Shown here piece after piece: positions 18,101 to 24,269 of a stretch of DNA of 64,000 bases (within the stretch, counting starts at the first letter, position 1; every line of letters begins with the position of its first letter). The position numbers and the translations under genes are program-made. The stretch is from Candidatus Cloacimonadales bacterium (lineage in GTDB: Bacteria; Cloacimonadota; Cloacimonadia; Cloacimonadales; DAONDQ01), in contig OY759316.1 of assembly GCA_963662275.1 (NCBI GenBank), positions 2,912,001-2,976,000 of the forward strand. The letters run 5' to 3'. Under the pieces are notes generated by a model, which searched no databases, was not told the DNA's origin, and was given only the letters and a program-made list of their open reading frames with translations.

Positions 18101-18168
18101 CGTCCTGATGGGACTGGACGCGTTGCGAATGCTCATCACCGGATTGAAATCCAGTGTTAATATCTTTC
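18101..18168 (+). repeat. CGTC-type REP-like unit (continues at 20062-20128)
   Basis: GTCCTGATGGGAC-N17-CTCATCACCGGATTGAAATCCAGTGTTAWTATCTTTC; the downstream part of the unit recurs after the IS. Confidence 0.75.
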
Positions 18169-20061
18169 GGAGATGTCCCGAAACTAAATGATAGAAAAAT
18201 AGCAACTATTAAATATTAATCATATTACTTGACATATTGTTATAGGGTGTATTGTTGCCTTTAAAAACTAAGCATAGAGAGAATTATGAATTTCAGAGAG
18301 CACAATCCGAATCAGGGGACACTCTATGGACTTAATATTGAAGAGAGAATACCTCCCCAGCACATGGTTCGTTATGTTAACGATGTCGTTGAGCAACTGG
18401 ACTTATCTGAGCTATATACAAGATACTCTGATGAAGGTACACCTGCTTATCATCCCAAGATGATGTTGAAGATCATTGTGTATGCCTATATCAATGGTAT
18501 TTATACCTGTCGGAAGATAGCTAAGGCTGTTCGGGAGAACATCAATTTTATCTGGCTGGCAGGAGAACAGGAACCTGATTTCAGAACGATCAACACCTTT
18601 GCCTGGACTAAGTGTTCTGATATTCTTATTGATGTATTTTATCAGGTAGTACTGAAAGCATCATCATTAGGATATCTTGATCTCGACACCTGTTTTGTTG
18701 ACGGGACGACGATTCACGCAAATGCCGGCAAGAATTCCTACATCTGGAAAAGCAATGCGCTTCGTTATCAGGAACTGGTCAAGACACGAGTTGAGGGATT
18801 GTTTAAAAAGATCGAGGAATATAATCAGGAAGAGCAACAGCAATATGGAACCGCTGATCTTCTTGAGCTTGGTGAGCAATTGCATGCGGTTGAATCAGAG
18901 AAAACTGCTACAGTCGCATCTGAACAGATCAGAGATAGACTGGTCTCAGCAGAAAACAAGCTGAAAGAAGCAATGTCCCGACTACAGAAAAATCATCCGT
19001 CAGATACTCGGGCTATCAAGAAAATCAAATCTCTTTTGCGCGAAATCTCCAAATCAAAGAGCAATGATATAACTAAGCTGGAGAAATATGAGCAACAGCT
19101 TGAGATAATTGGAGAAGGACGCAGCAGCACATCCAAGACTGATAATGATGCCACATTTATGCGATTGAAAAATGGACAGCTGGCACCGGGTTATGTTGCC
19201 AGTATCGGAACTTCAGAGCAATTTGTCACAGGCATTCACTTATTCAATATCCCTAAAGAAACCGTTGAATTTCCCAATCTCATGGAGCAAATGCATGATG
19301 AATTGGGACAATATCCTACCGACGTTGTTGGAGATGCTGCCTATGGCACTGCGCTGAATTTGAATTATGCTGCTGAAAAAGAGATAACAAGCTATCTCAA
19401 GACCCAGGATTATAAGAGAGATTATCGGGACTCTCTTCTGACAGGCTTCAGCTATGATGAGGAGCATGATGAGTGGGTCTGTCAATTTAATCGGAGACTG
19501 GTCAAAATCAAGGAAGAAGAGACAGAGAAGAACGGTCCGAAACGAATCGTGAAAACCTATATATGTAATGACTGCAGAGAATGTCCTCACAATAAAAAGT
19601 GTATTCCCTACAAGGATAAAACACATAAATCACTGACCTACGATCCTCATATAGCTCCACTAAAACGTCAGACCGTCAATAATCTGCTTTCTGAAAAAGG
19701 CGACAAGCTGAGAAAGCAAAGAGGCATCGAACCGGAGGCTGTATTTGCTTTCATGAAGTGGAACAGGAAGTTTGAGAGATTTACTGTCCGTTCATTGAGA
19801 AAATGCAAGGAACAGTTATCCCTCCTCTTTTTAGGACATAATATAGGGAAAATGTTTCTGCACTTACAAAATACTGAAGGAAAAGCCTGATGAAGACTCT
19901 TCCTACCAGAATTCAAACATGAATTAGGTAAATATTACTCCGTTTTTCCTTGTCTTTGCATCGCTTTTCGGAAAATATTGAGTAATTTAGTTTGCCTGTA
20001 AAAACAATCACATATTTTACAACAGAAGAAAATAAAATCATGCTAGTTTCGGGACATCTCC
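18169..20061 (+). mobile_element. IS1182-family insertion sequence
   Basis: Perfect 18-bp terminal inverted repeats GGAGATGTCCCGAAACTA (18169-18186 / 20044-20061) around a transposase gene. Confidence 0.92.
18286..19890 (+). CDS. IS1182-family DDE transposase
   Basis: YHPKMMLKI..YAY (DUF772-like), PDFRTI, FVDGTTIHANA, TDNDATFM, DAAYG, IEPEAVF motifs. Confidence 0.93.
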   Translation: MNFREHNPNQGTLYGLNIEERIPPQHMVRYVNDVVEQLDLSELYTRYSDEGTPAYHPKMMLKIIVYAYINGIYTCRKIAKAVRENINFIWLAGEQEPDFRTINTFAWTKCSDILIDVFYQVVLKASSLGYLDLDTCFVDGTTIHANAGKNSYIWKSNALRYQELVKTRVEGLFKKIEEYNQEEQQQYGTADLLELGEQLHAVESEKTATVASEQIRDRLVSAENKLKEAMSRLQKNHPSDTRAIKKIKSLLREISKSKSNDITKLEKYEQQLEIIGEGRSSTSKTDNDATFMRLKNGQLAPGYVASIGTSEQFVTGIHLFNIPKETVEFPNLMEQMHDELGQYPTDVVGDAAYGTALNLNYAAEKEITSYLKTQDYKRDYRDSLLTGFSYDEEHDEWVCQFNRRLVKIKEEETEKNGPKRIVKTYICNDCRECPHNKKCIPYKDKTHKSLTYDPHIAPLKRQTVNNLLSEKGDKLRKQRGIEPEAVFAFMKWNRKFERFTVRSLRKCKEQLSLLFLGHNIGKMFLHLQNTEGKA

Positions 20062-20138
20062 TCAGTCTATGTTTCAGACTCATCACCGGATTGAAATCCA
20101 GTGTTATTATCTTTCTTCCCGATGAGATTAAGAGCTGA

Positions 20139-20231
20139 TTACAGCAATACACAATCATCCATGCAGTTATTTCTAACGATATATTGTAAAGGGATATTCG
20201 GGTATATGCTTTTGAACTTTTAATACTTGTT
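20139..20231 (-). pseudogene. Distal part of an interrupted AAA_14/DUF4143 relic
   Basis: NKY*KFKSIYPNIPLQYIVRNN... is in frame with AFEVKWTGKQIKT on the far side of the element. Confidence 0.6.
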
Positions 20232-20351
20232 GAACGAAGCTGCAAGCAGCAGTACCGTTCGCAGTAAACTCGTGTTTCATGCATTTAAACTATTGATATA
20301 CTGAACCCTCACTAAAAGCATACTTACCCCCAAAATTAACTGGAGGTAAGT

Positions 20352-21224
20352 ATGGAATCATACGAAGTTCGCTTTTTAGAGTGCCTTGATCTTCGAGGCG
20401 TGTCCCGAGAGACAAAATACAATTACATCAGACAAGTCACTTCTTTAGCATCATATTATGGTCAAGACCCCGGCACACTATCTATTGAACAGGTAAGAAC
20501 ATATTTTGTCTACCTGCATAACGTCAAGAATTATAGTCCTCAGAGTTTAAAATCAGCCTATTATGGCATCAGATTTTTTTTCATCCATGTTGTTGGTTTC
20601 AGGCAAGAGGATTTTACCTTTTTTAAGGCAAAGATTGAGCACAAACTTCCTGTGATTCTGACCACAGACGAAGTTAGAATGCTTATCTCCCGCATTCATA
20701 CTTATGATTATCGACTCTTACTGACTCTTACCTATCAATGCGGATTAAGGATTTCGGAAGCAGTCAAGATTAAAATAGCCGATATCAACCGGGAATTGAT
20801 GACCATCACGGTAAGGCAATCCAAAGGCAACAAAGACAGGTCAATACCTCTGCCTGAAAAATTGTATCAGGAACTCCGGGAATATTGGAAAACCCATCAG
20901 AACAGACAGCTTTTATTCCCGAGCAGAAGCACCAGACAGGCTGATATTAACAGAATGACAACCTCGAACCAGATTTCTGTCCAAACTCTTCGGTCAGCTC
21001 TGAAGTCAGCCTTAAAGGAGACACGCATCCCTAAGCATGTAACCTGTCATACACTCAGACATTCTTATGCCACACATTTATTGGAAGCAGGTGTCAGTAT
21101 CATCATCATCAAAGACTTGCTCGGGCACGAAAGTCTTAGAGCGACCATGGTATACGTGCATTTGACTAACGTTTCCCGAGAGCAGTCATGTAAAATCATC
21201 AATGAACTGATGAATAAGATGTAA
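20352..21224 (+). CDS. Tyrosine recombinase/integrase
   Basis: GLRISE (R), KGNKDR (K), HTLRHSYATH, LLGH..L..T.VY catalytic set; N-terminal SAM-like domain. Confidence 0.95.
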   Translation: MESYEVRFLECLDLRGVSRETKYNYIRQVTSLASYYGQDPGTLSIEQVRTYFVYLHNVKNYSPQSLKSAYYGIRFFFIHVVGFRQEDFTFFKAKIEHKLPVILTTDEVRMLISRIHTYDYRLLLTLTYQCGLRISEAVKIKIADINRELMTITVRQSKGNKDRSIPLPEKLYQELREYWKTHQNRQLLFPSRSTRQADINRMTTSNQISVQTLRSALKSALKETRIPKHVTCHTLRHSYATHLLEAGVSIIIIKDLLGHESLRATMVYVHLTNVSREQSCKIINELMNKM

Positions 21225-22367
21225 ATGGATTTTAGCAGGATTCTCAAAAACAACCTGTCCGAGTATCTGGAAAAATATGGAAACCAGTCACCGGAAAGCC
21301 ATTTAAGAGCGATCAGAGATATTCTCCTTTGCCGGACACCTGAACTGGGCGGAGAAGTCTATTTATGCCAGGAATGTGCGGAACTGCATTATTCCTATCA
21401 TTCCTGCAAAAACCGTCACTGCCCGAAGTGTGGCCGTAATGATTCAGCGAAATGGCTGGAAAAGCAGCTTGCCAAACTGCTGCCGGTTAAGTACTTCATG
21501 GTAACTTTCACCATACCCCGGGAACTGCACAAAACATGCCTGTCAAATCAGAAACTGCTTTATGATCTTCAGTTCAAAGCATCATCTGAAGCCTTAAAGA
21601 CATTGCTTTCAGATCCCAAATATGCCGGTGGCGTTTCAGGCTTTACCGGGGTACTTCATACCTGGACAAGGCAGCTTGAATATCATCCTCATATTCATTA
21701 TATAGTCCCCGGCGGAGCTTGGAATAAAGAACGAAAGGAATGGCAAAAAGCAGGCAATAAGTTCCTGATTCCGGTCAAAGCTCTTTCGGTGATTTACCGG
21801 GCAAAATTCCGTGATTTGCTTCGACTGGAAAATCAGCATCTGTTTGGTCGGATATCCCCGCTAGTCTGGCAGCAAAAAGAGTTTGTCACAGACTCCCGAC
21901 CCGTCGGAAAAGGTCGGGAGGCTCTGACTTATTTGGCCAATTATGTGTATCGGACCGCCATCACCAACAATCGCATCCTTTGGGAAAAGGACGGGCTGGT
22001 AACCTTTAAATACAAGCCGGCAGGTTCAGCTAAATTCGCCTTTAAAAGCGTCGACTCCGTGGAGTTTATCAATAAGTTCCTGATGCATGTTCTGCCGCAG
22101 GGATTTCAGAAAATCAGATACTACGGATTTCTCAGTCCGGCGGCAAAATCTGTCTGGGAGATGGTCAACAGCTTTTTCCCAGCAAAGTCCGATTCTAATG
22201 ACAAGAATCAGACAGCTAAAACTTTTGTAATTCCCAAATTTGAAAAAGACCTCTGCCCTAATTGCAAATCAAAGATGACACAGCATGCTTCAATTACCGG
22301 AAAACCAAGATCACCGCCTTGGTCGCTGTTGTTTTTGGCAAATTGCTTTGATGGCGGTAAACTGTAA
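21225..22367 (+). CDS. IS91-family HUH (Y2) rolling-circle transposase
   Basis: Zn-binding CRT...C..C..HSCKNRHCPKC, LHTW...HPHIH (HUH), YLANY, HVLP.GF.KIRYYG motifs. Confidence 0.95.
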   Translation: MDFSRILKNNLSEYLEKYGNQSPESHLRAIRDILLCRTPELGGEVYLCQECAELHYSYHSCKNRHCPKCGRNDSAKWLEKQLAKLLPVKYFMVTFTIPRELHKTCLSNQKLLYDLQFKASSEALKTLLSDPKYAGGVSGFTGVLHTWTRQLEYHPHIHYIVPGGAWNKERKEWQKAGNKFLIPVKALSVIYRAKFRDLLRLENQHLFGRISPLVWQQKEFVTDSRPVGKGREALTYLANYVYRTAITNNRILWEKDGLVTFKYKPAGSAKFAFKSVDSVEFINKFLMHVLPQGFQKIRYYGFLSPAAKSVWEMVNSFFPAKSDSNDKNQTAKTFVIPKFEKDLCPNCKSKMTQHASITGKPRSPPWSLLFLANCFDGGKL

Positions 22368-22677
22368 GTTAATTTTACCGACGGGATTGTCTTGCCTAAA
22401 TTATAGAAACAACCGAAATATTACAGGCAATTTGCTAAAATACTTGAAAACAATATCAGCCCATACACAAAAAGTCTGATCTCAAAGTGATTTGATAACT
22501 TCTGAAAAGAAAATCATCTCTTCCATTGGTAAAAGACTCTGCTAAAATTGTAAAAATCCAATTCAACCCAAGAAATCTTCAAAAAGCAATTTCCAAATAC
22601 ATATTCAAAATCACCCTGCTACTTGAGCTTGTTCAACAGCATATCCAATCATGCCTATGATGGGAAATGCTTATTAT

Positions 22678-22828
22678 GTTAGTTTTGATTTGTTTGCCAG
22701 TCCATTTTACTTCGAAGGCATGCTGATCATCAATTTAGTTTATAATGTATCTGGCGAAGGGCTGTTGTCTTGCCGGTCTGTCTGGAACCGGCCAATGGAA
22801 TGGCTGTTTGACTTGGTAACCATGTATT
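22678..22828 (-). pseudogene. Internally deleted AAA_14/DUF4143 relic (Walker A joined to C-terminal motif)
   Basis: WLPSQTAIPLAGSRQTGKTTALRQI, then in a shifted frame DDQHAFEVKWTGKQIKTN. Confidence 0.65.
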
Positions 22829-23489: not shown

Positions 23490-24269
23490 ATGGATTTTAA
23501 GATGGAGCATAGCAAATCGCGGTTGGTGAGATTTCTCAGCCGGGATAAGCATCTGAATATGTATTCACTGGGCGACCTGGATGATCGGTTTTGGGAACAT
23601 AATATCTGGTATTCTCATAGAAACGGAAAAGATATCAGGAACTTAATTCAAATATATACTCACTTCGATACCCCAACACTTATTTCATTTCCTGAGGATT
23701 TGGAATCATATAAAACCTTTCTTGATAAGGTGGCTGCATATCTACCAGTCAAAGTGATGTTTCATCTGTCGCCAGATGCTTTGGATGTATATAGGCAATA
23801 TTACCGGATAAGCAGTCAGACAAGGATGCTGAATATGAGTTTGAAGGATATTCCATCTCTTAAATTACATCAGGCAGAAGAAACCATTCAACTGAAAATG
23901 AGCCATTTAACGATCATAAAGCAGTTGTATGCTGAAGCTTATCCGGATAACTTCTTTGATCCGGAGATTCTCAAAACCGGTATGTTCTACGGGATACTGA
24001 AAGATTACAGACTGGTATCCATTGCCGGAATACATGTTTATTCACCCAGGTACAAAATCGCAGCGCTGGGAAGCATCACTACTCATCCTGATTACCGTAA
24101 TAGGGGATTTGCAGGTATATTAGTGTCAAAAGTGTGCACAGAACTGTTGAGAAAAGTGGATACGATTGGTTTAAATGTGAATGCAGAAAATGGCAGTGCT
24201 ATCCATTTGTATGAAAAGCTGGGGTTTGTGAAGAATAAAGAATTCATCGAAGGGTTTCTTCTCAAGTAA
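23490..24269 (+). CDS. GNAT acetyltransferase (FR47-like C-terminal domain)
   Basis: ITTHPDYRNRGFA and LNV..EN.SAI.LYEKLGF motifs. Confidence 0.88.
   Translation: MDFKMEHSKSRLVRFLSRDKHLNMYSLGDLDDRFWEHNIWYSHRNGKDIRNLIQIYTHFDTPTLISFPEDLESYKTFLDKVAAYLPVKVMFHLSPDALDVYRQYYRISSQTRMLNMSLKDIPSLKLHQAEETIQLKMSHLTIIKQLYAEAYPDNFFDPEILKTGMFYGILKDYRLVSIAGIHVYSPRYKIAALGSITTHPDYRNRGFAGILVSKVCTELLRKVDTIGLNVNAENGSAIHLYEKLGFVKNKEFIEGFLLK

Follow-up and report, generated by a model that had tools for sequence, protein, structure and literature searches.

A recombinase-carrying IS91-family element with structured ends in a Candidatus Cloacimonadales genome

A gene pair present in thirteen copies

The window analysed here is a stretch of 64,000 nucleotides from the genome of a Candidatus Cloacimonadales bacterium (GenBank assembly GCA_963662275.1, contig OY759316.1, positions 2,912,001 to 2,976,000 of the forward strand), and the subject of this report is a mobile element within it that joins a gene for a tyrosine recombinase, int, to one for an IS91-family HUH transposase, tnpA (Table 1). 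The element is 2449 bp long when the GTT common to its two junctions is counted once. The ATG of tnpA stands directly after the stop codon of int, which lies upstream of tnpA and is predicted to be translationally coupled to it. A first-pass annotation, made from the letters of the window, had described a mobile integrase and IS91 unit with defined ends and a hairpin, and the 13 copies reported below, together with the recognition of both genes, bear this description out. We read the element, with moderate confidence, as an active, recently expanded member of the recombinase-carrying subgroup of the IS91 family whose movement is most likely rolling-circle transposition by the HUH enzyme, the step of the recombinase being more likely auxiliary than the insertion itself.

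The host genome, a single contig of 4.38 Mb, contains 13 full copies of the element dispersed around it. The 13 left ends and 13 right ends detected genome-wide match this count, and neither solo ends nor miniature derivatives of the element were found in the 4.38-Mb genome, nor any tandem copies. The only variation among the copies is a C/T difference at 22654 in the loop of the right-end hairpin (T in 7 of the 13) and, in L013 alone, a length change of 1 nt. Twelve of the 13 right ends have the sequence TTATTAT-GTTA; in the exception, L010, the spacer is 1 base shorter and the flank begins AAT. The junction letters given in the first-pass annotation are exact, and so is its start at 20229, but its end at 22684 overruns the true end at 22680 by 4 nt into the flank. 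If replication is taken to start at ~4.16 Mb and to end at ~1.9-2.2 Mb, 6 copies have tnpA on the lagging strand and 3 on the leading strand, while 4 are ambiguous, which gives no signal of bias. Rfam yielded nothing above threshold in the window.

An empty counterpart of the insertion site is provided by a paralogous locus in the same genome (G000:C1:3518450-3518580), which is 91-93% identical and has a single TTT where the filled site has GTT...GTT. Neither at this site nor across the 13 copies is there any target duplication beyond the common triplet. We also compared the element region with the contigs of four public sequencing runs. These break at 20229 and 22681, with a depth of 448 within the element against ~40 in its flanks. 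No circle junction or back-joint occurs in the contigs of the four runs, which cannot reveal rare forms. One joint that skips the element (in X3) was considered as an excision product and rejected, as it differs at 7 other letters and corresponds to the paralogous locus. A search for empty sites in a genome of the same genus (G002) returned only an 82%-identical coding match, that genome being too diverged.

Table 1. Features of the element and the gene relic that it interrupts (window coordinates)
Feature	Coordinates	Strand	Basis
Gene relic, distal part: C-terminal fragment of an ATPase-like gene, with internal stop	20139..20228	-	Paralogue match
Whole element, both junction GTTs included	20229..22680	+	13 copies with differing flanks; paralogous empty site; unitig boundaries in run contigs
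Left copy of the common GTT; cut within or beside the triplet	20229..20231	.	G (the base preceding TTGAAC) in 13/13 copies; next base outward T in 12/13
Left terminal arm, begins GTTGAAC, complementary to 22616-22637	20229..20252	+	Joined-end fold; TTGAAC core kept in relatives
Small hairpin of the left end, stem of 5 bp, lying 10 nt in from the terminus	20239..20250	+	Same position in 12/12 families, stem sequences differing
int: tyrosine recombinase of 290 aa, IntI/XerA-like, no I2 insertion	20352..21224	+	Pfam, NCBIfam and PDB matches
tnpA: IS91-family Y2 HUH transposase of 380 aa	21225..22367	+	Y2_Tnp, Zn_Tnp_IS91, NF033538
Conserved block in the right non-coding region of 313 nt	22581..22596	+	Kept in the window element, L039, L040 and L041
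Right subterminal arm, ends GTTCAAC, complementary to left terminus	22616..22637	+	Joined-end fold; relatives
Right-end hairpin, 13 pairs, loop 22653-22656 with the C/T polymorphism at 22654	22638..22671	+	Fold and covariation
AT-rich spacer TATTAT (6 nt) between hairpin and cut	22672..22677	+	Fold; AT-rich spacer of 5-6 nt in relatives
GTTA adjoining the right end: right GTT copy (22678-22680) plus conserved flank A	22678..22681	.	12/13 copies
Gene relic, proximal part	22681..22734	-	Homology to paralogue stops at 22734

The two enzymes, the ends and their relatives

The recombinase comprises the Pfam domains Phage_integrase and Phage_int_SAM_4. Its best NCBIfam match is TIGR02249 (180 bits in two stretches, under the cut-off of 265) and its best match in the PDB is VchIntIA (2a3v, E 1e-31), with XerA scoring almost equally (4a8e, E 1.7e-31). 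These matches agree with the first-pass view of an integron-integrase-like protein, as does 10.1101/542381 (Smyshlyaev, Barabas and Bateman), passages of which assign the recombinases found in IS91 and IS3 elements to an 'Integron-like subgroup' and thereby also confirm that integrase-plus-IS91 pairs were already known. Placing Int between IntI and Xer by the I2 helix region, as had been suggested, gave a mixed outcome: the protein is closest to IntI, but it lacks the I2 insertion and its XerA score is nearly equal. No counterpart of the IntI-specific insertion was found in Int, TIGR02249 positions 182-213 being unmatched and IntI4 residues 181-221 facing just 9 Int residues in the 2a3v alignment. 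An insertion of the I2 type is specific to IntI according to parts of 10.1101/542381, and is tied to single-strand recombination by the abstract of PMC7790495 (eLife). The host genome contains no true integron integrase. Six catalytic residues of Int (R133, K158, H233, R236, H259 and Y268) show no change across 14 orthologues that are 29-60% identical, which argues that Int has been selected as an enzyme and not merely as a DNA binder. Judged from these residues, Int is catalytically intact, appears clearly to be under selection for catalysis and probably carries out a real recombination step.

The transposase matches NF033538 with 363 bits against a cut-off of 125. Although it is only 23-24% identical to IS1294-like and IS801-like transposases, the zinc cysteines C48, C51, C66 and C69, the histidines of the H154-P-H-x-H158 motif (H154, H156 and H158) and Y236/Y240 are invariant in comparison with them. 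As far as its residues tell, TnpA keeps the full IS91 catalytic set and has lost nothing needed for integration.

When joined in silico, the two ends fold as one long imperfect hairpin with a dG (folding free energy, DNA parameters) of -25.3 (top strand) and -26.5 (bottom strand), corresponding to z-scores of -7.3 and -7.9 against shuffled sequences. The fold has a stem of ~22 nt, formed by 20229-20252 with 22616-22637, and an inner hairpin at 22638-22671. It pairs GTTCAAC with GTTGAAC, matching the core pattern RYYYAAC / GTTRRRY, and thus reproduces the hairpin with complementary cores that the first-pass annotation had predicted for the circularised element. The 6-nt spacer (22672-22677) forms a bulge on one strand only, and the joined-end fold has neither a second (L) box with extrahelical bases, nor conserved bulged bases, nor a two-sided unpaired spacer, all of which are traits of attC sites. 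Across the four closest elements, both partners are altered in 6 of the 13 pairs of the right-end hairpin, and pairing is kept in 94% of cells as against 35-50% with slid partners; the count was confined to these four, an alignment of eight ends having misaligned the distant right ends. Further inward, the conserved block of the non-coding part on the right (22581-22596) is similar to the terminal hairpin's 5' arm.

Relatives were detected at E <= 1e-30 in 12 of 200 other genomes of the same order, the nearest TnpA found being 59-60% identical. The recombinase gene stands directly upstream of tnpA in 14 of 16 related loci, and two plasmids, one of Herpetosiphon and one of Methylobacterium, carry the pair as well. 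Both the gene pair and the design of the ends recur in relatives from other phyla: the left end has RTTGAAC followed by a small covarying hairpin, and on the right the complementary arm leads into a covarying hairpin, after which come 5-6 nt of AT-rich spacer and the cut. All 12 families examined have TTGAAC(T/G/A)AA at the left end and, behind it, a hairpin whose sequence is unrelated between families. At the right end a hairpin is predicted directly after the arm in 8 of 11 families, and in those read by eye it is followed by the 5-6 nt AT-rich spacer and RTT. The Herpetosiphon element has a far longer hairpin at the equivalent place of its right end.

A related element with the same gene pair and a TnpA 38% identical to that of the window is present in 18 copies in one metagenome-assembled genome. 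Its left end reads ATTGAAC in 18/18 copies, preceded by T in 15/18, and its right end reads TTATTC-ATT in 16/17, the deviant copy (L034) having an extra A. The remaining copy (L029) lost its right end to another insertion, and hence only 17 right ends are counted; from L029 position 3956 onward its tnpA is interrupted by a sequence starting TGACC…, and this insertion led us to reject the copy as a product of premature termination. The junction triplet of this relative is ATT and not GTT, such that only R-T-T is conserved across both elements. An ATTG terminus with an ATT flank thus corresponds to a GTTG terminus with a GTTA flank, and such covariation of terminus and target is expected if a single nick-site specificity serves both. 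Of the two features that the first-pass annotation had predicted to be shared by homologues, the terminal hairpin was recovered (12 families on the left, 8/11 on the right) but the GTT was not, and homologous copies with no shared GTT are part of what that annotation had itself named as counting against its proposal. Since the triplet is present in both target and element in the multi-copy families and in genome G088, the cut can be assigned only to the triplet as a whole.

A further locus in G088 (L049, comprising the whole of the 2332-nt contig C108) begins with TTGAAC, and this hexamer also closes it, directly after its right-end spacer. Its target may have an uninterrupted family member, in which the sequence past the cut is different. 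The contig end may be an element-to-element junction, from either a circle or a tandem.

Insertion target and mode of movement

We aligned the 13 target sites, placing the cut behind the invariant G. The resulting logo extends to both sides of the cut over ~7 nt, with T at -3 (9/13), T at -2 (12/13), G at -1 (13/13), T at +1, +2 and A at +3 (each 12/13), a purine at +4 in only 4/13, a purine at +5 (10/13) and a pyrimidine at +6 (13/13). In the host genome this target, T-T-G|T-T-A, resembles the terminal heptamer of the element itself. Five or six of the 13 insertions lie at one fixed position of a dispersed repeat, 5 nt before the hairpin of the repeat, and the 13 sites are therefore not fully independent. 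The repeat is ~100 nt long and occurs genome-wide in G000 (e.g. C1:1212191, 1834448 and 4357611); it is laid out as a small hairpin ending CTTGTT, a GC-rich hairpin with a GTTTGTAAC-like loop and a second palindrome, and insertions in it are located at C1:463210, 908384, 2109456, 2649202 and 3040317. Rfam assigns no name to the repeat, and its sole match in six target loci is an Acido-Lenti-1 RNA in L007 (4751-4796, minus strand, 45 bits against a gathering score of 37), ~800 nt from the element copy. As had been pointed out for the window copy, no GAAC or CAAG follows the right end in the sense of the transposase, and CTTG precedes the left end, as it does in 6/13 copies overall. Read in this same orientation, the flank is GTTA in 12/13 and the terminus GTTG in 13/13, where canonical members have GAAC/CAAG.

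The IS91 family offers a ready framework for these features. Passages of PMC13181058 describe elements of this family as making no duplication and needing a flank tetranucleotide next to oriIS; the tetranucleotide cleaved at terIS equals the target in IS801, IS1294 and IS1294b, and subterminal palindromes occur at both ends. The same passages have these elements inserting as bottom-strand single-stranded circles, with both single- and double-stranded circles reported for IS91. A common triplet, the absence of a duplication, a hairpin and the pairing of joined ends are accordingly traits of the family, and no recombinase is needed to account for them. This is illustrated by an integrase-less IS1294-like element (three copies on three plasmids), whose left terminus is GAAC with a hairpin 4 nt on, whose right end is followed in the three copies by GAAC, GAAC or CAAG in the transposase sense, and whose joined ends are enclosed by pairing arms containing TTGAA; it has subterminal palindromes and makes no duplication either. 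Given that it follows the same end logic, the HUH enzyme alone would explain what the first-pass annotation had observed. That annotation had the HUH enzyme making single-stranded DNA and the recombinase integrating it through an attC-like hairpin at GTT sites; the mobile unit, the hairpin and the IntI kinship stand, but the features cited for the mechanism are equally those of canonical IS91.

The best-supported view is thus of a nick site that is clade-specific within ordinary HUH rolling-circle transposition. At each end, the R-T-T triplet would be the place where TnpA nicks one strand (we infer the enzyme, the strand and the cut point in the triplet), a single-stranded circle would be released, and this would reinsert at a short target, T-T-G|T-T-A in the host genome, leaving no duplication and one triplet common to both junctions. 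Origin and terminus signals would be supplied by the terminal arms together with both covarying hairpins and the AT-rich spacer. A step catalyzed by Int is more likely to be auxiliary than to be the main insertion, for example in processing circles or multimers or as an alternative pathway. That the element has spread to 13 copies in a genome with no integron integrase is in keeping with this scheme.

If the origin lies on the right, as in IS91, which is favoured by the gene order and by the strongly conserved tetranucleotide in the right flank, the motif nicked on the bottom strand would be YAAC. An origin on the left is in turn favoured by the CTTG before the left end in 6/13 copies. The layout of arm, hairpin, spacer and cut at the 3' end of the top strand points in the same direction, as does the fact that the sole two deviant junctions, in L010 and in L034 of the 18-copy relative, are both right ones. 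These conflicting indications as to the origin weigh against the rolling-circle scheme as drawn above, and three further observations do so as well. Int, judged by its invariant hexad, its presence in 14/16 loci and on two plasmids and its likeness to IntI, cannot be a mere passenger; the tetranucleotides GTTG/GTTA differ from the GAAC/CAAG of the IS1294-like element in the same orientation; and the folded strand, with its arm, 6-nt spacer and second stem, has the geometry of a tyrosine-recombinase core site.

These last points lead to a different division of labour, in the style of integrons, in which TnpA would only make the single-stranded circle, and Int would bind its folded junction and exchange one strand with a GTT target, with replication resolving the product. 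In favour of this are the standing of Int as nearest kin of IntI with an invariant catalytic hexad, the fit of the joined-end heptamers to RYYYAAC/GTTRRRY with the crossover at the start of the spacer, and the maintenance of a spacer of 5-6 nt while the second stem covaries freely. The target also fits the core pattern at +1 T, +2 T, +3 A, +5 purine and +6 pyrimidine, but not at +4, where a purine is found in so few copies. Against it, Int is without the I2 insertion that the abstract of PMC7790495 ties to single-strand recombination, and the joined-end fold has no extrahelical bases or two-sided unpaired spacer. Moreover, TnpA retains both tyrosines and has apparently lost nothing for integration, the same end logic is seen in the integrase-less IS1294-like element, the triplet is ATT in the 18-copy relative, and the 13 different target sites have no evident second recombinase-binding arm. 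On balance we consider this division of labour somewhat unlikely. Its evolutionary extension, that an Int with no I2 recombines the folded circle made by TnpA, and that these elements are self-mobile cassette-like units whose arm-spacer-hairpin junction and R-T-T crossover represent the kind of substrate ancestral to attC and IntI, strikes us as slightly less likely still.

The absence of I2, together with an XerA score (4a8e) as good as that for IntI, makes Int resemble a double-strand recombinase, and it could instead act on double-stranded forms after or beside HUH transposition, resolving head-to-tail multimers or double-stranded circles that rolling-circle read-through would produce, or excising and reintegrating the double-stranded circle, by means of a site at the joined ends. 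The report of both circle types for IS91 in PMC13181058, as far as its passages go, would accommodate this, and the L049 contig, which both starts and ends with the left-end hexamer, could be an element-to-element junction of the requisite kind. However, no conventional core site of two inverted arms 6-8 bp apart is visible in the double-stranded form, the arms being 40 bp apart at the joined ends; the host genome has no tandem copies; and the run contigs, which cannot reveal rare forms, contain no circle junction. We therefore hold such a role on double-stranded DNA to be improbable, and retain rolling-circle transposition by TnpA with an auxiliary Int as the preferred account.

Recombinase-carrying members of the IS91 family are already published, and it is the sequences of the window element that are new. 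In the literature searched, with subscription journals and the text of ISfinder and TnPedia lying outside the search, we found no work on the end structure of integrase-carrying IS91 elements, on their target or on what their recombinase does, nor any paper that accounts for its presence in part of the family. The element also bears on the open question of how integron integrases and attC sites arose. Its host genome offers a clean case, with 13 near-identical and evidently active copies, defined ends, a target logo, conserved structures and no integron integrase. Should Int act on the folded junction, rolling-circle transposons would be linked to integrons; if it does not, the element would be an ordinary IS91 relative with an accessory enzyme.

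The interrupted locus and comparison with known systems

The element interrupts a relic on the minus strand that corresponds to the C-terminal end of an intact paralogue of 403 aa (L014 382-1593, ...AYEVKWNGKQINTKKYEKFKNTYPNIPL...), indicating that the relic is a real C-terminal gene fragment, a short 3' piece whose halves are rejoined in frame once the element is removed. Such rejoining had been noted in the first-pass annotation, and the empty paralogous site and the intact paralogue both corroborate it. On the distal side lies an IS1182-like element (18169-20061) with perfect 18-nt terminal inverted repeats (18169-18186 and 20044-20061) and a 534-aa DDE_Tnp_1_6/DUF772 transposase (18286-19890); a 37-nt direct repeat (18132-18168 and 20079-20115) is found around it. 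A second IS1182-like copy adjoins the intact paralogue in L014, and with such copies beside both loci the relic and the IS1182-like element look like a duplicated block. The ~67 nt between the IS1182-like end and the relic (20062-20128) are not in the paralogous locus, and include a motif (…CACCGGATTGAAATCCAGTG…) also present at 18132-18168. Downstream of the element is a gene for a 259-aa GNAT-family acetyltransferase (23490-24269, plus strand).

In comparison with canonical members of the IS91 family (IS91, IS801, IS1294 and IS1294b), the window element shares the Y2 HUH transposase with its N-terminal zinc domain, the absence of a target duplication, subterminal palindromes and pairing TTGAA arms. 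In layout, though not in sequence, it also agrees with them in its conserved flank tetranucleotide, which is similar to the one at the other terminus. It differs from them in its extra recombinase gene, in having GTTG/GTTA in place of GAAC/CAAG, in the large hairpin between the right arm and the cut, and in a left arm situated at the very terminus. Members of the family that carry a recombinase are entered in ISfinder under names such as ISAzo26. With the recombinase-carrying members of the 'Integron-like subgroup', as delineated in passages of 10.1101/542381, the element has in common the gene pair and an IntI-grouped recombinase devoid of the insertion, but its sequences are new, the nearest TnpA being only 59-60% identical. 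A positional parallel exists with Orf121 of IS91, which according to passages of PMC13181058 modulates transposition and the precision of terIS cleavage: in both cases the gene lies directly upstream of tnpA with its stop touching the tnpA start. However, Orf121 has 121 aa, whereas the upstream gene of the window encodes a recombinase of 290 aa with a conserved active site.

The likeness to the integron IntI/attC system consists in the nearest recombinase family, a crossover triplet common to element and target, and complementary heptamers around a hairpin that is conserved in structure rather than sequence and varies in length among relatives. In contrast to that system, there is no I2, there are no extrahelical bases, the spacer is one-sided and no attI platform exists; and unlike integron cassettes, which an integrase mobilises in trans at attI, the element brings both enzymes with it and has many dispersed insertion sites, with a GTT that is not invariant. 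Integration of the CTX-phi type combines a rolling-circle Rep protein with Xer recombination of a folded single strand, by means of the host XerCD and dif. There, the single-stranded DNA made by an HUH enzyme folds into a hairpin that is then integrated by a tyrosine recombinase, which is the concept that the first-pass annotation had put forward for the window element; the element is distinguished from CTX-phi by carrying a recombinase of its own and by its many targets.

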